From a virus, in UHGV virus genome UHGV-1390708: a DNA stretch of 40,460 bases; one strand, given 5' to 3'. Shown piece after piece: positions 3,551-38,565 of the stretch (its first letter is position 1; each line of letters starts with the position of its first letter). The notes beneath the pieces were generated by a model. That model did not search any database. It had not been told where the DNA came from and saw only the letters and a program-made list of their open reading frames with translations. The position numbers were made by a program, and so were the translations under genes.

Positions 3551-4314
3551 GATGTCTCTCCTTTACCGGCTGCGGCGCGGTCTATGCGTTCAATTTCGGC
3601 CAGAATAAGTGCGCCAGCTTTCACAAGGTCACGACGCGGCCCAGATTGCTTCCACCAATCAGGAGCCCACGGCCAATGCGCTGGCGTTGAGAGGCCTTGA
3701 TTGTGTGCGTTAATCGCATAGCAAGCTGCAGCATCTGCCAGCTCACTGTTTTGATAGGCGTCGTCATGCTCCGATGTCCAACCCTCAACAGCCCTCTGCC
3801 GCTGACGTTCTGATATCACATCCAGAAGTGCAGGATTGAACGCCAGCACCTCCAGTTCAGCAATCCGCTTCTCTGCGGCTTCCAGCTTCTCGCGCATATC
3901 GTCAACGTACTCGACCAGAGATCCGCCAGCAGGAATTTCGCATTCCTCGACCAGTTGGAAGTAGATATCAGCTGCGGCCCGTGTGTTGCTATGCCTAGCG
4001 TCGCCCATCTCACCTTCACGAAGAGCATCGCGTTCGGCGGTAAGATTGGCTATTTTGCTGTCTTTGCCTTCCAGCTCAACGCGCAGCCTCCCAACCGTAA
4101 GCGCAATATCCTCGTTCTCCTGGTCGCGGCGTTTGATGTATTGCTGGTTTCTTTCACGTTCATCCAGCAATGCCAGCGCGATATCTGGCGAAAAGTGCTT
4201 CATAAAATCGTTAAGCGCATTAATTCGCTGATCGAAAGGCATTACAGGTGCTTCACCAGCAATTTTTGTTTTTTCAGCGATTTCACGAAGCTTTTGATAA
4301 TCAATCTTGCTCAC
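3547..4314 (-). CDS. Hypothetical early-left accessory protein (coiled-coil)
   Basis: 255-aa ORF, start overlaps upstream stop; position equals the ea region of lambdoid phages. Confidence 0.6.
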   Translation of the reverse strand: MSKIDYQKLREIAEKTKIAGEAPVMPFDQRINALNDFMKHFSPDIALALLDERERNQQYIKRRDQENEDIALTVGRLRVELEGKDSKIANLTAERDALREGEMGDARHSNTRAAADIYFQLVEECEIPAGGSLVEYVDDMREKLEAAEKRIAELEVLAFNPALLDVISERQRQRAVEGWTSEHDDAYQNSELADAAACYAINAHNQGLSTPAHWPWAPDWWKQSGPRRDLVKAGALILAEIERIDRAAAGKGETS

Positions 4315-19964: not shown

Positions 19965-20118
19965 TAGCGATAATTTTACTCATCATCCTTCACATCTGGC
20001 TCTGTAGACAGGGTGGTGATCACTTCTGGAGTAAATCCAGATTAAACATCTCATTGCTGATGCTTGATATTGAGCATCTGGCGCGCGGTAAGGGGCTGCG
20101 TTGAGATAAGAGCCAGTT

Positions 20119-20162
20119 CATTACAAATACCAGGATTTAGCCTCGCATTCGCGGGGTTTTTT
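20119..20162 (+). repeat. Junction motif copy 1 (ATTACAAA plus hairpin and T-run)
   Basis: cATTACAAAtaccagg...cctcgcattcgcggggTTTTTT upstream of the DUF2829 gene. Confidence 0.5.
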
Positions 20163-20186
20163 ATTCCCAACTCCATAGGTAATTTT

Positions 20187-20666
20187 ATGACCCAGCATAT
20201 TGGCGTAAAACTGATTAACGCCTTTCCGATGACGAGACAGGCATATAACGATTTTCGTGGCTGGCAGCTTCCTGCCGGAGAAAACGGCGAGGACGAAGGC
20301 TATCTGGTTGAATATCTGGATGGCGGAAAACCTAACACCGATCGCTTTGATGGCTACGTTAGCTGGAGTCCAAAAGAAGTATTCGAAAGGGCTTATCGTC
20401 CGGTATCAGGACTAAGTTTCGGCCTTGCCATGGAAGCGTTAAAACAGGGCAAAAGTTTGCAGCGGGCAGGATGGAATGGGAAAGACCAGTTTGTTTATCT
20501 CGTGAAAGGGGAAAAATTAGCGTCTGCGTTGGGTTATGGCTTTGGCGAATATGTTGGCGAGCCAACTTTCAATGACACGCTTGTATTGAAAAACTCACAG
20601 AACCGCCTTGCTACATGGGTTCCATCCATTGGCGACCTGATGGCTGAAGACTGGCAAATCATTTAA
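20187..20666 (+). CDS. DUF2829 (Tad2-like) domain protein with a unique N-terminal extension
   Basis: C-terminal ~85 aa 'AMEALKQGKSLQRAGWNGKDQFVYLV...ATWVPSIGDLMAEDWQII' fits my recollection of the DUF2829 signature (GWNGKG ... LAEDWE). The track's 20064 start was rejected. Confidence 0.6.
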   Translation: MTQHIGVKLINAFPMTRQAYNDFRGWQLPAGENGEDEGYLVEYLDGGKPNTDRFDGYVSWSPKEVFERAYRPVSGLSFGLAMEALKQGKSLQRAGWNGKDQFVYLVKGEKLASALGYGFGEYVGEPTFNDTLVLKNSQNRLATWVPSIGDLMAEDWQII

Positions 20667-20899: not shown

Positions 20900-21271
20900 A
20901 TGAACGACCAGCAAATCGAAAAAGAAATTGTTGAGAAAGGCAAAACGGCACCGCGCGTTACGCCAGACCATATCGAAGGAATTATTGCTCAGGAGGCATA
21001 TTTCACAGCAGAGGATGGTGCCTTTGGCAAAGCCATAAAAGCGAAACATACTGGCGGAGAGGTAAACTACCAGCCGCACGAATCACTTTCTCTGCTGACG
21101 TTCTGCGTCCTGGTGCTGCGCAACGGCTTCACCGTCACCGGAGAGAGTTCCTGTGCAAGTCCGGAAAATTTTGATGCAGAAATTGGTCGGAAGATTGCCC
21201 GGCAGAATGCTGTAAACAAAATCTGGATGCTCGAAGGTTACTTGCTGAAGCAGAAGCTAAGCGAACAGTAG
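20900..21271 (+). CDS. Hypothetical cargo protein (123 aa)
   Basis: ORF between the lysis and packaging modules; flanked by the ATTACAAA junction motif. Confidence 0.6.
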   Translation: MNDQQIEKEIVEKGKTAPRVTPDHIEGIIAQEAYFTAEDGAFGKAIKAKHTGGEVNYQPHESLSLLTFCVLVLRNGFTVTGESSCASPENFDAEIGRKIARQNAVNKIWMLEGYLLKQKLSEQ

Positions 21272-33305: not shown

Positions 33306-35428
33306 TGAAAGTAACTGCAAACGGTAAGACATTTACCTTCCCTGATGGTACGAGCACGGAAGATATTGGCACCGCCATTGATGAGTATTTTGCTGGTCAG
33401 GCTGTTCAGCAACAAACAGTTAATCAGGACAATAATGCACCAACACGGGAAGAACCATCATTGATGCAACAAGCTGGCGATTGGCTCACTGGTGGTCAAA
33501 GTGCAGGGCAAATTGCAGAACAGGCTGGTCGTGGTCTGGTAAACATACCATTTGACGTATTGCAGGGTGGCGCAAGTCTGATTAATGCAATCAGCCAGGG
33601 GCTTGGTGGCCCCAAGGTTTTGGATGATGTTTATCGCCCTGTCGATCGACCGACAGACCCTTGGGCGCAAGCCGGTGAAACAATTGGTGGGTATCTCCTG
33701 CCAATTGGCACAGCGGCAAAAGTTGCTGGAGCGCCAGCAAAGCTCGCAGGAGACATCGGTTCCGCAGGAAACATGATTGCAGGTTCTCTTGCTGATGCTG
33801 CAAATCAGGAGGGTGATTTTGCACAAAATGCTGCCATTAACGGTGGTATCAATATTGGTGCTCAAGGCGTTCTTTCAGGTGTCGGGCGCGTTATTGCGCC
33901 AAGGGTTTCACAGGCTCTTGGTGGTGCAGCACTGAATTCTGCTAATGATGTTTCTAGGATGGCAAAGTCAGGTGCTGGGCGTCAGTCAATTGCCAGTCAG
34001 GCCGCTAATGTGTCCGAAGATGTAGCAAAAGCGGCTGAGTCTGCTGGAATTGATATAAACGCATTAACACCAGGAATGCGATCTGGAAGTCGTGGAATTG
34101 CACAAGCCGAAGGCGCATTGGCATCAACACCTGGAATTGTTCAGGACGCCCATCAGGCAGCATTTAACGAAATATCATCAAAGTTAAGTCGAAACCTTGA
34201 TGAATTTGGGGCCACATCTGGAACGGCATCAGAAAAAAGTGCGGCTATAAAACAAAGGATTCTTCAAAATCTTGATCAGATGAAGGATGCCGAGCGCGCG
34301 GCATGGGATGACGTGCGGTCAACAATGCCAAATCAAAAAGCAAGAATGCTAAATGGTAATGCCGTTATTCAGGCAGAGCGATCTGCTGGCATACCGCTTA
34401 CTCCTGAAATGAAACAGTTTGTTCAGGCAAACAATCAAGGTGGAGTAACATTTGATGGCATGAAAGCATGGAGAGCGAAATTTGCTGATGCGGAGCAAAA
34501 ATATAAGCGTAGCGGAGAGGCAAATGCGGCAAGGAGAGCAGGGGAAATACGCCGGGCAATTACTGATGATATGCGCACAATGGCGGAAAACGGCGGATTT
34601 CTTGATGACTGGCAGAAAGCTAATGATCTGTCTAAAGCGAGGTTATCAGCACAAGAGAGTGCAGAGTCTGTTTTCGGGCGTGATTTGGCAACAGATGCAC
34701 TGATTACGAATGGAGTAAAATCCCTTCAATCATCGTCAGCTAAAGGTCTTAATGGTCCTGCTGGATTCCATTCTATGATCCGCGCGCTGCCAGAATCAGA
34801 GCGTGTTCCTGCTATTTCATCAATGTTGCAAGATGCTATCTCGCATGGTGTACGTGGTGGCAAAGCTGATGCAGCAGGAATTAACCATATCGCAGAGATA
34901 CTGACTCCACAAAATGTAAAAGCCATTAGCCGATATTCCTCAGAGCTTGGAAGAATTGCTGATGCATATGGCACTCTTGCAAGAGCAGCAGTGAAACCTC
35001 AGCAGTATATTGAAAGAACAGGTAGAACTGCCAATGTACTACGCGATCTGGATGCTGGTTTATCCAACGTCACATCAACAGTGTTAAATGCAATTGCCAA
35101 TTCAACATCAGGTGCCATTGTTGGTGGCGCTGGAGGAGGCATTGCAGGCGCTGCCGCAGGTGCTTTAGTTGGCGCTGGGTTAAAAGGCGCTGTATCTAAA
35201 ATTGCCACCACACGTAGTGGTCGGTATGCGATAGAGAAAGCAGTTCAGGAAGCAACTAAAGCAGTAAGAGCAGGCGGAAGCAAAGAAGCATTAGCGGCGG
35301 CGGAACGCAGATTTATGGCAAATAAGGCCGCCGTAAAAGCAATACGCGAGGCACTAGGAAACGAAGAGTTCCAGCGTTTAGCAAGGGCTGGAATTGTGGC
35401 ATCGCTTAGCGGAATGGCACAGGAGTAA
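33302..35428 (+). CDS. Ejection protein (P22 gp16-like)
   Basis: 708-aa Ala/Gly-rich protein, last gene of the ejection block. Confidence 0.7.
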
Positions 35429-35758
35429 TTAGTCATCCATGGATGGATTGAGCTTATCTCGTGTTGATGTGGCAATTTTACCAACATTTTTCAACCAAGA
35501 TTTTAAGAAGGATATGTCGTCCTTAATATCATGAATATCCTCATTCTTTATACGATCAACCTTATCCTCTAGGCTCTCTATAGAACGCTCAATGCTAGAC
35601 AGAGAGATTTTTAAGTCTCCTTGCTCACGTTCCAGTGAGGATTTGAGAGCACAATATTCGTTTTCTAGAATTCCTATTTTTTTTGTTAGAGAGTGCATTC
35701 GATACTCATACACCAAACTAGAAACGACTAATGCAGCCAACAGAAACCATTCAAGCAC
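35429..35758 (-). CDS. Small membrane plus coiled-coil protein (GTG start)
   Basis: ORF 35429..35974 trimmed to a GTG preceded by AGGAGG; this removes the overlap with the divergent gene. Transmembrane helix LEWFLLAALVVSSLVY then coiled coil; AT-rich. Confidence 0.5.
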   Translation of the reverse strand: MLEWFLLAALVVSSLVYEYRMHSLTKKIGILENEYCALKSSLEREQGDLKISLSSIERSIESLEDKVDRIKNEDIHDIKDDISFLKSWLKNVGKIATSTRDKLNPSMDD

Positions 35759-35788
35759 ACCAACCTCCTTAGTTTTGCGCAGGATACC

Positions 35789-36154
35789 ATGAAAAAAGTT
35801 AACATTGGAAACGTACCAAAAATGCTCGTTCCGCTCTTTGAGAGCGGTACAATTGTGTTTTGTAGAGACTTTCCAGAATGGCAACGCCTGCATCAAAAAC
35901 TTGGTGTGGACGTGCAGGACTCGGATGCCAACGGAGCGTCTCATACAATGAGCAGCGAGAATGGTGTTTTGCATGTGATAGGCGTGTTCAATGGCAAACT
36001 ATCTACTATTGCCCATGAGTGCGCTCACATGGCATTCGATATCTGCTCAAGGGTCGGTGTTGATGTTGAACCAGGAAGAGCCAACGAGACTTACTGCTAC
36101 TTAATGAGCAGGCTTGTTGAGTTCTGCGAGCGACATATCAAAAAGCCGGAGTGA
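35789..36154 (+). CDS. Putative small zinc metallopeptidase-like protein (HExxH)
   Basis: 121-aa ORF with 'IAHECAHMAFD' (HExxH) and a downstream Glu; no recognisable signal peptide. Confidence 0.55.
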   Translation: MKKVNIGNVPKMLVPLFESGTIVFCRDFPEWQRLHQKLGVDVQDSDANGASHTMSSENGVLHVIGVFNGKLSTIAHECAHMAFDICSRVGVDVEPGRANETYCYLMSRLVEFCERHIKKPE

Positions 36155-36170
36155 CCCGGCTTGATTATTA
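36136..36170. terminator. Bidirectional terminator between convergent genes
   Basis: Hairpin agccgg-agtgac-ccggct with T-rich tracts on both strands. Confidence 0.5.
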
Positions 36171-36347
36171 CTTTTTGCTGTCTGGAGTTCGCTTATCTAA
36201 TACCCAGCCATGACCTGGCTTTGTTGTTGGTGGAAGCCTTTCGTTGTCCTTGACGGTGGCAAAATTGTCTTTCTTACCGCCGCGCGGGCCAACTTCTTGG
36301 TATATTCCGCCGTTTTTTCCTGTGTTTTCACCTGGTTTTTTCGCCAT
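36168..36347 (-). CDS. Small basic Gly/Lys-rich protein (59 aa)
   Basis: MAKKPGENTGKNGGIYQEVGPRGGKKDNFATV...; GAGGT Shine-Dalgarno. The track's longer start was rejected. Confidence 0.5.
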   Translation of the reverse strand: MAKKPGENTGKNGGIYQEVGPRGGKKDNFATVKDNERLPPTTKPGHGWVLDKRTPDSKK

Positions 36348-36436
36348 GATATACCTCAACATGCACTCGTTATTGGGCGATTAAATATTGATCTCATTTT
36401 ATGAGTAGTCAATATGGTCCAAAAAAGGCAAAAATT

Positions 36437-36464
36437 AACCCACCTTCAGGTGGGTTTTTTGTTT
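36437..36464. terminator. Bidirectional terminator overlapping the 3' end of the Mnt-like gene
   Basis: aacccacc-ttca-ggtgggtt hairpin with T-runs on both strands. Confidence 0.5.
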
Positions 36465-36766
36465 AGCAGTTCTCTCAACTTTTCGTTCTGCTCTCTGAAC
36501 TTTTCCTGTATTTCTTTTTGCATGGCGATAACCTGGGCTTGAAGTTGAACTAGCGCATCAACATTTAGCGGAACCGAGACGCTGTTGATTTTATCTGCTA
36601 TTTCCCCGAGTGTATTTTCTGCATTCAAGGCATCTTCCAGTATCTGAACAATCTCTGAGTTCATTGATCTGCCGTTACGTTTGGCTCGTTCAGCTATAGC
36701 ATCCCGCATTCCTGCAGGAAGCCTGATATTGAACCTATCCATTTCATGACTAGGGAACTTGCTCAT
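36446..36766 (-). CDS. Mnt-like ribbon-helix-helix repressor (copy 1)
   Basis: 'FNIRLPAGMRDAIAERAKRNGRSMNSEIVQILEDAL' is an Arc/Mnt-type RHH motif; diverges from the Arc-like gene across an operator region. Confidence 0.7.
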   Translation of the reverse strand: MSKFPSHEMDRFNIRLPAGMRDAIAERAKRNGRSMNSEIVQILEDALNAENTLGEIADKINSVSVPLNVDALVQLQAQVIAMQKEIQEKFREQNEKLRELLNKKPT

Positions 36767-36801
36767 ATGACCTCAACGTAAAGATGTTCGCTAAACAATA
36801 G

Positions 36802-36857
36802 CACCAACTTGACATCAAAATAAATGGTGTTAAATTGGTTCTAGAACCAAGTTGGTA
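36802..36857. promoter_or_regulatory. RHH-repressor operator: 12-bp perfect palindrome inside a larger inverted repeat, with a TTGACA -35-like hexamer
   Basis: GGTTCTAGAACC (36837-36848) flanked by CACCAACTTG ... CAAGTTGGT; TTGACA at 36809-36814. Confidence 0.55.
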
Positions 36858-36877
36858 TCATTATAGGAGGATTACTT

Positions 36878-37051
36878 ATGAAAGATGTGCTTTACACAGG
36901 TCGTAAAAGTCAAAGTTTTCAGCTTCGTTTGCCAGCGCGAATGAAGGAGGAGATTAGACGTGTTGCTGAAATGGATGGAATTTCTATCAACTCTGCGATT
37001 GTGCAGCGACTGGCTAAAAGCCTGAGAGAGGAAAGAGCTAATGCCCAGTAA
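36878..37051 (+). CDS. Arc-like ribbon-helix-helix repressor
   Basis: Manual translation MKDVLYTGRKSQSFQLRLPARMKEEIRRVAEMDGISINSAIVQRLAKSLREERANAQ; GGAGG Shine-Dalgarno. Confidence 0.6.
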   Translation: MKDVLYTGRKSQSFQLRLPARMKEEIRRVAEMDGISINSAIVQRLAKSLREERANAQ

Positions 37052-37751
37052 AAATAGTGAAGCCCAGCAGTGCGCGAACACAAACTGGGCCTCTATGTCA
37101 GTAACCGTATGCAAGGAAACTAACATGAATATTGTAGCAAAATCAGATTACAACTTCCACGGAGTTGAGTTGGTGCCCACCCGTGATATGCATGGTGTTT
37201 GGTTTACATCATCTAATATTGCATCTGCACTTAAATACGCAAATAGTCGTGCAGTAACAATGATTTATAACAAGTATAGCGATGAGTTTAGCGCCGGAAT
37301 GACTCAGGTACTCGAAGTGAGTACCTCAGGAAATTATCGCAAAAAAGTGCGAGTTTTCTCACTACGCGGTGCCCACCTAATCGCGATGTTTGCTCGCACT
37401 CCGGTAGCCAAAGAGTTCCGCCGCTGGGTGCTGGATATTTTGGATCGGCAGGCAGAATGCTCACCGATTGCAAAACAGTTTACTGACGAAGAACTGGTTA
37501 ATCTCTGCTACTTACAATTGTGGATGGAGAAGAGTCAACAAATGTGCAAACACATCTACCCAGGAATGAAGCAAATTGGTTCTGAGCTTTCAGGAAGGAT
37601 TTACGATATTGCATATGAGACTCGCTACATGTCAGAAGAAACCAAGAAATCACTTCTTCGTGAAATGAAGAATCTTGATACCAACAATTTTGTCGTAAAG
37701 AACGCTCAGCCAATACTGGCAAAACTGCGCGGCGAGGAATGGATTCATTGA
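37041..37751 (+). CDS. ant: Antirepressor Ant (Bro-N-type)
   Basis: 236-aa ORF downstream of the Arc-like gene; Bro-N-like 'FHGVELVPTRDMHGVWFTSSNIASAL'. An alternative start at 37127 (MNIVAKS, AAGGAA Shine-Dalgarno) is possible. Confidence 0.7.
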   Translation: MPSKNSEAQQCANTNWASMSVTVCKETNMNIVAKSDYNFHGVELVPTRDMHGVWFTSSNIASALKYANSRAVTMIYNKYSDEFSAGMTQVLEVSTSGNYRKKVRVFSLRGAHLIAMFARTPVAKEFRRWVLDILDRQAECSPIAKQFTDEELVNLCYLQLWMEKSQQMCKHIYPGMKQIGSELSGRIYDIAYETRYMSEETKKSLLREMKNLDTNNFVVKNAQPILAKLRGEEWIH

Positions 37752-37770: not shown

Positions 37771-37801
37771 AAAAAGAAAACCGCCAGTGTGCTGCTGGCG
37801 G
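37771..37801 (-). terminator. Putative minus-strand terminator
   Basis: ccgccag-N7-ctggcgg hairpin followed on the minus strand by TTTTCTTTTT. Confidence 0.3.
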
Positions 37802-37839
37802 CCTATGTCACACCCTTACTACCACATAAGGAATGCCTA

Positions 37840-38565
37840 ATGACTTTTAAGAATGTAGCAAACATCGGATCCGTTGTCACGGATAAAACCATTGACAGCC
37901 AAAGTCTTCTGATGATGGTTAATGAAGCTCGCAAGTTATGTGGAGAGCCATCAGTACGTAACAACAAATTCATCGAGAAAATTGAGGATGAATTGGAGGG
38001 CGAGACCTACACAAAAAGTGTAGGTCGGAAAAACGGGGCTGACATTGATGTTATCTCCATGACTATCAAGCAGGCGCTTCGTGTTGCTGCTCGCGAATCT
38101 AAAGCAGTTCGCCGAACACTTGTAGACAAACTTGAAAGTATGCAGGAAGCACACATTAAAAGCGGTAAATCAGCGAGTGGACTTGTTGAGTATCGTCAAG
38201 CGCGAACATTGAAAATGACGGTTGAAGCTGTTACCAATCTGTTCGATCTGATGCCAAATCTTGCGCCTGAGGCAAAGCAGACTGCGGCAGCAAGCATAAT
38301 CAACCCGATCGTTGGTTTTAATGCAATACCTCTTCCAGCAATAGAAGAGCATTACTACTCAGCAGGGGAGGTTGCAGAGCAGCTTGGAGTAACGGCCAAC
38401 AAGATTGGTCGCATTGCTAACGCAAACAACCTCAAAACTGAGCAGTACGGCAAGTTCTTCCTAGATAAATCTGCGCATTCCAGCAAACAGGTAGAGGCGT
38501 TCCGCTACAATGCGGAAGGTGTTAAAGCACTACAACACCTGATTCATGGGAGTAATGTTGCATAA
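37840..38565 (+). CDS. Antirepressor-like protein (KilA-C-like C-terminus)
   Basis: ORF 37789..38565 trimmed to MTFKNVANIG (AAGGAA Shine-Dalgarno); the C-terminus 'YYSAGEVAEQLGVTANKIGRIANANNLKT' resembles KilA-C-type domains. Confidence 0.55.
   Translation: MTFKNVANIGSVVTDKTIDSQSLLMMVNEARKLCGEPSVRNNKFIEKIEDELEGETYTKSVGRKNGADIDVISMTIKQALRVAARESKAVRRTLVDKLESMQEAHIKSGKSASGLVEYRQARTLKMTVEAVTNLFDLMPNLAPEAKQTAAASIINPIVGFNAIPLPAIEEHYYSAGEVAEQLGVTANKIGRIANANNLKTEQYGKFFLDKSAHSSKQVEAFRYNAEGVKALQHLIHGSNVA

Follow-up and report, generated by a model that had tools for sequence, protein, structure and literature searches.

In P22-like phages, the variable region between genes 16 and 9 is known as the 'ant moron', and hkcC and 59a of P22, as well as an hkcB homologue of epsilon34, have been named within it (Villafane et al., 2008; PMC2629481). 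This is also where sieA (types A, B and C) is found, pointing leftward with the PsieA region upstream of it. A single copy of sieA carrying just 85 bp of upstream sequence sufficed for superinfection exclusion, and phages escape SieA through mutations in the C-terminal parts of gp16 and gp20 (Leavitt et al., 2024; PMC10883804). Here we describe three small open reading frames (ORFs) at positions 35429-36347 of UHGV virus genome UHGV-1390708, a stretch of 40,460 nucleotides that was analysed as a whole and is called the window below. On sequence comparison, the three ORFs correspond to the already named hkcB, hkcC and orf59a genes of P22-like phages, and the window is a CUS-3-like, P22-family Escherichia coli prophage in which they form the left end of an ant moron of the CUS-3/HK620 type. 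The block can be read as two independent units, hkcB and the pair hkcC+orf59a, of which only the first seems to stand in for sieA.

The closest described gene set is that of coliphage HK620, to whose hkcB/hkcC/'hkcD' segment the block is 97.3% identical over 1163 nucleotides. The HK620 record (AF335538) annotates hkcB and hkcC, describes the third gene as 'may encode HkcD; similar to P22' and adds a 'bidirectional terminator tORF59A'. The orthologues have the same order and orientation in both, with gene 16 on the left and the immI/antirepressor genes on the right. HK620 differs from the window in having a nonsense codon at E18 of orf59a where the window copy is intact, remnants of mnt/arc/ant where the window has the full region, and an HK620-like gp16 where that of the window is epsilon34/CUS-3-like. 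At the protein level, HkcB is 97-98% identical to its HK620 counterpart and 50% identical to the CUS-3 and epsilon34 alleles, HkcC is 100% identical to HK620 HkcC and to an unannotated ORF of P22, and Orf59a is 98% identical to that of P22.

The genes are not new: their names date from 2001 (HK620), and a description of the variable ant moron from 2008. No report of a function for any of the three was found in the literature searched. We take the identity and architecture of the region, as set out here, to be practically certain; the overall reading, in which that architecture is blended with the functions proposed below, is one towards which we lean only slightly.

The leftward gene and the sieA slot

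A sequence-only reading of the window had located the three ORFs correctly and proposed that together they occupy the place of P22 sieA. The location was borne out and the replacement was not, as P22 itself has hkcC (100% amino acid identity) and orf59a (~98% nucleotide identity) next to sieA; positions 35756-36462 of the window are ~98% identical to P22. In a three-way alignment, the P22 homology runs leftward through a common ribosome-binding site (RBS) and ends exactly at the GTG of the leftward gene. The 85 nucleotides upstream of hkcB agree with those upstream of P22 sieA at 83 positions and include the same RBS (AGGAGG at 35764-35769, five nucleotides upstream of the hkcB GTG at 35758) and the same GTG start; the P22 record carries the PsieA annotation at this region. 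Across the first 60 coding nucleotides there are 27 matches, the coding sequences being unrelated. Because the P22 homology covers hkcC, orf59a and the 85 upstream nucleotides and breaks at the GTG, only hkcB replaces sieA, one cassette having been exchanged exactly for another while the promoter/RBS region is shared. The hkcB cassette points antisense to the late operon.

A longer, ATG-started ORF of 181 amino acids (35429-35974, minus strand) was considered as the hkcB product and rejected, being an antisense open frame that extends across hkcC; all hkcB homologues begin at the GTG/RBS. P22, too, has an open frame on the strand opposite the 5' half of hkcC, upstream of where sieA is annotated to start. 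Mechanical ORF calling stretches hkcB to 181 amino acids and P22 sieA to 236 (positions 2009-2719 of the P22 locus compared, minus strand), a trap for automatic annotation.

The GTG start, the AGGAGG RBS and the membrane/coiled-coil character that had been ascribed to the leftward gene all hold for its product of 109 amino acids. Residues ~1-18 are hydrophobic (mean Kyte-Doolittle value 1.98), the basic residues R20, K26 and K27 follow this putative anchor, and the remainder is hydrophilic with a coiled-coil-like heptad character. The C-terminal ~45 residues are nearly invariant between alleles that are just 50% identical overall, and no insertions or deletions are seen at that divergence. A profile of HkcB homologues matched only generic GCN4-type coiled coils in the PDB. 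Matches to BicD, FlaC, XhlA, SMC-like and Rad50 models were set aside as generic coiled-coil noise, and a weak PADLOC match to DpdH (E 4.5e-4, 18 bits) is probably compositional; neither HkcB nor HkcC fell into an informative family in Pfam, NCBIfam, PADLOC or PHROGs. In two metagenomic proteins (P0057 and P0058), the conserved C-terminal ~45 residues of HkcB are fused to an unrelated N-terminus that has no hydrophobic anchor. These chimeras suggest that the 3' end of hkcB may be a recombination junction.

Homologues of hkcB are always convergent with gene 16 and touch its stop codon (CUS-3, epsilon34, SEN22 and two prophages, at ~50% identity), and the gene is tied to one type of gp16. The gp16 of the window is 98% identical in amino acid sequence to gp13 of epsilon34, 96% to gp16 of CUS-3 and 74% to gp16 of HK620; it resembles P22 gp16 in the N-terminal ~200 residues alone, the C-terminus of P22 gp16 being unrelated. 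This type of C-terminus occurs in just 15 of 50,697 phage records, among which are all eight records that carry hkcB. The link survives recombination, since the window combines an epsilon34-like gp16 (98%) with an HK620-like hkcB (98%), the hkcB of epsilon34 itself being just 50% identical. As a separate observation, gp16 of CUS-3 and of HK620 are 77% identical over ~720 residues by BLASTP, as against 26% in PMC10883804, a difference that other sequences or alignment methods may explain.

Among the three genes, an exclusion or defence role is plausible for hkcB only. By analogy with SieA, HkcB would be expressed from the prophage, as SieA is, and would counter, at the inner membrane, the delivery of DNA when further P22-like phages infect, so that exclusion would be exerted by a protein unrelated to SieA. 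What the two genes share is the slot between genes 16 and 9, adjoining gene 16 at its 3' end, the leftward orientation, the near-identical 85-bp upstream region with its RBS and GTG, and a predicted membrane location. The proteins themselves differ: P22 SieA has 164 amino acids, several predicted transmembrane segments and an FxRYPxEAxxFNK motif (PMC10883804), whereas HkcB has 109 amino acids with one N-terminal hydrophobic segment and a coiled coil, and the two have no sequence similarity. The exclusion function, moreover, has been demonstrated for SieA and not for HkcB. We propose only tentatively that hkcB may encode an exclusion factor acting at the inner membrane. The fuller proposal, for which our confidence is low, is that superinfection-exclusion proteins could include a second class, structurally unrelated to SieA and represented by HkcB, a coiled coil with a single anchor that would have taken over the sieA slot and its promoter and would be directed at the DNA-delivery conduit of phages with a gp16 of the HK620/CUS-3/epsilon34 type.

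Several results weigh against this proposal. BLASTP returned no alignment between HkcB and P22 SieA at E <= 100, and the clear homology to sieA by which the sequence-only reading would have been refuted is thus absent; the FxRYPxEAxxFNK motif is missing from the HkcB sequence; and the Kyte-Doolittle scan shows the single hydrophobic segment (~1-18), not a multi-pass topology of the SieA type. A consensus scan gave no strong sigma-70 match upstream of hkcB, where the promoter is just putative. There is no mention of hkcB in PMC10883804, and our literature searches returned no functional study of hkcB, orf59a or YjzC. Finally, the association of hkcB with one gp16 type could reflect mere physical linkage or a shared recombination boundary, and the 3' end of hkcB is the part reused in the P0057 and P0058 chimeras.

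It is also possible, though we think it rather unlikely, that HkcB is made by the prophage and does not block entry, serving as an abortive-infection or membrane-perturbing protein, as a lysogenic-conversion factor or as a modulator of ejection or lysis for the phage that encodes it. Consistent with this, HkcB resembles neither SieA nor any known exclusion protein; the position of R20, K26 and K27 after the anchor suggests, under the positive-inside rule, that the coiled coil may be cytoplasmic; and there are resemblances to membrane coiled-coil proteins of the XhlA, Rz1 and AmaP types, all weak and below threshold. Such roles are less easily squared with a slot, an orientation, a promoter/RBS region and an adjacency to gp16 that are those of sieA, or with the strict link to one type of gp16.

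The convergent hkcC and orf59a genes

The second gene had been read as a divergent ORF of 121 codons, 30 bp from hkcB on the opposite strand, with a zincin-like HExxH motif. All of this is confirmed, and the motif (H76-E77-C-A-H80) appears to be a genuine signature. An exhaustive profile search collected 551 cluster representatives at E < 1e-3, nearly all of them stand-alone proteins of ~110-140 amino acids, and in an alignment of 97 of these, 23-43% identical to the query, the sole invariant columns are H76, E77, H80 and E100. Against the PDB, the family profile matched zincins alone (myroilysin, astacin-type BMP1 and aspzincin), weakly (E 0.02-1) and aligned on the motif. HkcC has no Pfam match; among the 97 relatives, one matched SprT-like (PF10263; E 1e-4) and none matched Peptidase_M78 of the ImmA/IrrE type (PF06114). 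PADLOC-DB 2.0 defence models returned nothing for HkcC or for Orf59a. Lantibiotic models also matched HkcC (E 0.14 and 0.025), on a short stretch of Cys and His, and these matches were rejected as noise.

An AlphaFold2 (AF2) model of HkcC, with a predicted local distance difference test score (pLDDT) of 83 and just two of five models confident, consists of a beta-sheet, a helix that carries HExxH (residues 74-88) and a helix that starts at E100. In a Foldseek comparison with the viral models of BFVD there were 17 matches at E <= 1e-3, mostly to uncharacterised phage proteins; the few that are named are 'SprT-like' or 'PolyVal metallopeptidase', and the IrrE neighbours had probabilities below 0.5. 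In the core of zincin-like metallopeptidases (MPTases), two His residues and a Glu on the next helix bind Zn, and the Glu of the motif is the general base (Iyer et al., 2017; PMC5512222). The modelled topology of HkcC agrees with this core, as it does with the MPTase domains of phage and plasmid polyvalent proteins and SprT-like proteins described there, which likewise have a beta-sheet with two helices, one carrying HExxH and the other the Zn-ligand Glu. HkcC is unlike the polyvalent-protein domains in being a stand-alone protein of ~120 residues and not a domain of a large protein, and it falls below the Pfam threshold for SprT-like. In SprT/Wss1-type enzymes the third ligand is a His, as against the invariant Glu of HkcC. 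Minimal gluzincins (those with the thermolysin-type HExxH...E spacing, minigluzincins and the 3e11 'zincin-like' protein) are among the closest known systems, and HkcC has the corresponding arrangement of an HExxH with a downstream Glu, 20 residues on, as the predicted third Zn ligand. From sequence and model we conclude that HkcC probably has a stand-alone, minimal gluzincin-type metallopeptidase fold, and we consider it moderately likely that it is an active metallopeptidase.

In every context seen, hkcC is co-oriented with the surrounding lytic operon, and relatives are present in virulent N4-like phages. Because of this orientation and these relatives, a role in prophage defence is argued against, and a late or early lytic accessory function would fit. 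HkcC would then act in the cytoplasm as a Zn-dependent peptidase, its expression coming from read-through of the late operon, and orf59a would be transcribed in the lysogen from its own promoter or that of mnt; late expression of one and lysogenic expression of the other are read from orientation alone, a point against the scheme. In P22 (positions 2534-2899 of the P22-pbi locus compared; also NC_002371, BK000583 and AB362338), the hkcC ORF is intact, and several P22 reference records have no coding sequence annotated there, just the features 'PsieA' and 't mnt'.

The third gene proved, as described from the sequence, to be convergent and to encode a Gly/Lys-rich, basic protein of 59 amino acids (9 Gly; 13 Lys+Arg vs 7 Asp+Glu), which appears to be a divergent YjzC-like protein. 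Orf59a itself scores 19.4 bits (E 1.3e-3) against Pfam YjzC (PF14168), short of the 25-bit cutoff; the model is matched by 24 of its 54 homologues, the best at 4.1e-10, and close homologues are named 'YjzC family protein' in UniRef. Like the members of that family, it has ~60 residues and the conserved core PG...G.Y.E.GPRGG...LPPT; for orf59a the core reads PG...GG.Y.E.GPRGG...LPPT, and G6, G14, E18, G20-P-R-G23 and P39 are invariant. In its AF2 model (pLDDT 84), three strands make up a small beta fold, for which the PDB yielded no significant structural neighbour. The HK620 copy ('hkcD'; positions 3869-4048 of the HK620 locus compared) carries a TAA nonsense codon at the family-invariant Glu18, and the copies of the window and P22 are intact. 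In three metagenomic contigs, a YjzC-like gene that is 69% identical to orf59a follows a DUF3892 gene near a Fic gene; it is divergent there from a pair encoding a helix-turn-helix protein and a Peptidase_M78 protein (ImmR/ImmA-like), and so again lies beside a zincin, in an unrelated context.

A shared bidirectional terminator had been proposed between the two genes. The hairpin is present, and a terminator is annotated at the equivalent site in the HK620 and P22 records, as bidirectional in the former; the T-run, however, follows on the minus strand only (CCGGCTTTTTGA). Since this is the strand of orf59a, the hairpin is mainly the terminator of that leftward gene. It overlaps the last codons of hkcC, the conserved ...KKPE tail of the protein being encoded by the hairpin stem. 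All nine of the paired loci examined have an AAGCCGG...CCGGCTT-type hairpin at the hkcC stop codon, and because the orf59a terminator sits in the coding end of hkcC in every one of them, the two genes are physically interlocked.

The pair also occurs well beyond P22-like phages. Homologues of hkcC (43-63% identity) are followed, at a distance of 5-16 nucleotides, by a convergent YjzC-like gene of 59-66 codons in prophages of Klebsiella oxytoca, Rosenbergiella, Xenorhabdus, Proteus, a Pasteurellaceae bacterium and Morganella. Its position varies, from between tail-tube and tape-measure genes to after the endolysin, after replication genes in the early region, or inside other ant morons, and the comparison shows a convergent cassette that moves between unrelated phage types. 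The pairing is clade-specific, which tells against a general rule: a clade of hkcC paralogues typified by orf129 (38-42% identity), which in ST64T and L follows the lysis genes, is unpaired, as are some YjzC-like genes.

That hkcC and orf59a are a functional pair, Orf59a being a YjzC-like partner, inhibitor or substrate of the zincin and convergent transcription giving them reciprocal expression in the lysogen and the lytic cycle, is in our view unlikely, if worth bearing in mind. The convergent arrangement with 5-16 nucleotides between the stop codons persists at no fewer than nine loci, in several positions and at least seven genera, with hkcC identity down to 43%, and the orf59a terminator falls within the end of the hkcC coding sequence. 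The interlocked terminator alone could nevertheless explain the co-inheritance; HK620 is viable despite the nonsense codon at E18 of orf59a; and the orf129 clade of hkcC and several YjzC-like genes have no partner. As a further layer of the fuller proposal made above for HkcB, a zincin-partner system switched between lysis and lysogeny is a long shot.

An equally unlikely role for HkcC is that of a counter-defence or host-takeover protease, with an analogy in the zincin-like MPTase domains that ArdC and the polyvalent proteins of phages contain. Its structural neighbours include SprT-like and PolyVal MPTase proteins, and such MPTases have been proposed to be able to act on host proteins (PMC5512222). 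The family is found in virulent N4-like and other lytic phages, hkcC is co-oriented with the lytic operon, and paralogues lie in the post-lysis accessory slot, where the window has a Tad2-like anti-Thoeris gene. This case is argued purely from context, P22 carries hkcC without a reported phenotype, and the MPTases of polyvalent proteins are mostly proposed to be autoproteolytic, whereas HkcC stands alone. Still less credit is due to the idea that the HExxH is incidental, or HkcC a non-catalytic relic of the zincin fold, given that the two His, the Glu between them and the Glu 20 residues on are the sole invariant columns in 97 sequences and that all PDB profile matches are to zincins, aligned on the motif.

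Two units and their surroundings

The sequence-only reading had also called the block visibly AT-rich. This is true of hkcB, whose 37.3% GC lies in the 0.7th percentile when compared with windows of equal length; the GC contents of hkcC (46.4%) and orf59a (47.2%) are unremarkable beside the 47.8% of the whole window, and the three-gene block as a whole (43.5%) falls in the 9.5th percentile. The distributions differ as well. hkcB is found without hkcC, next to other neighbours, in CUS-3, epsilon34 and two prophages (L003 and L005), the hkcC/orf59a pair is found without hkcB in siphophage-type prophages, and among 5426 complete E. coli genomes full-length hkcB is present in 82 and hkcC in 128. 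From these separate distributions, and from the deviant GC content of hkcB alone, it follows that the block is most simply described as two units. Of the proposed acquired exclusion or defence module of unassigned family, what stands is that these are accessory ('moron') genes between gene 16 and immI with neither a function nor a Pfam family; the single module does not.

That all three genes were acquired horizontally as one coherent module for exclusion or defence, replacing sieA, is therefore highly improbable: the genes are contiguous and without assigned function, and HK620, phage 611R6 and several E. coli prophages have the complete triplet, but the comparative data already contradict it, in that P22 has sieA, hkcC and orf59a together with the break in homology exactly at the leftward start codon, hkcB and hkcC/orf59a are distributed separately, only hkcB is AT-rich, and hkcC has relatives in virulent N4-like phages.

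The features of the region are collected in Table 1. The mnt-like and arc-like genes match Pfam Arc with E 1.6e-20 and 8e-12, respectively. Rfam models identified no known RNA between positions 35000 and 39000, with no match to sar RNA and just sub-threshold sroH matches on the terminator hairpin. On the 3' side of the antirepressor gene, an ORF of 258 codons (37789-38565, plus strand) has no Pfam match; its product is 70% identical over 143 residues to that of the gene at the equivalent position in a Proteus penneri prophage. In the post-lysis slot, an ORF of 200 codons (20064-20666, plus strand) matches Pfam Tad2-like (Thoeris anti-defence 2-like; E 1.2e-21) and the next ORF (20900-21271, plus strand) matches the Phage_gp49_66 family (E 4.6e-34); in L/ST64T and mEp554 the same slot is occupied by paralogues of hkcC.

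Table 1. Coordinates of hkcB, hkcC, orf59a and adjacent features in the window
Feature	Position	Strand	Remarks
Gene 16 homologue, ejection/DNA-transfer protein, 708 aa	33302-35428	+	Stop codon abuts hkcB stop codon
hkcB, 109 aa, GTG start	35429-35758	-	Stop codon at 35429-35431; phrog_5962, function unknown
hkcB upstream region: RBS and putative PsieA promoter	35759-35843	-	Overlaps first 55 nt of hkcC
hkcC, 121 aa, zincin-like	35789-36154	+	phrog_1365, function unknown
hkcC motif codons	H76 36014-36016; E77 36017-36019; H80 36026-36028; E100 36086-36088	+	
GC-rich hairpin AAGCCGG-AGTGAC-CCGGCTT across hkcC stop codon	36143-36162	.	Terminator scan
orf59a (HK620 'hkcD'), 59 aa	36168-36347	-	phrog_3202
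Promoter-like site TTGACT-17-AATATT upstream of orf59a	36384-36412	-	Consensus scan alone, 9/12 matches; weak
Second hairpin terminator, just 3' of mnt-like gene	36437-36456	.	Equivalent HK620 site annotated tMNT
immI-type region	36446-37751	.	mnt-like, arc-like and antirepressor genes
mnt-like Arc-family repressor	36446-36766	-	Pfam Arc
arc-like gene	36878-37051	+	Pfam Arc
Antirepressor	37041-37751	+	Bro-N plus P22_AR_C

Implications for P22-like phages

The comparison turns three hypothetical proteins into testable questions. The sieA slot would be a cassette site at which unrelated membrane proteins are exchanged under one conserved promoter/RBS. HkcC may represent a large family without a Pfam model, of stand-alone minimal zincins spread across temperate and virulent phages (the 551 cluster representatives), and the interlocked convergent hkcC/orf59a cassette is present, partly unannotated, in the reference phage P22 too. 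The mechanism of SieA, interference with the gp16/gp20 conduit, was worked out just in 2024, and the slot now offers an alternative cassette tied to one type of gp16; that lineage, of HK620, CUS-3 and epsilon34, is, as far as HK620 is concerned, the one with which SieA copes least well. Were HkcB indeed a second exclusion class, it would help to explain the two thirds of P22-like phages that are without sieA.

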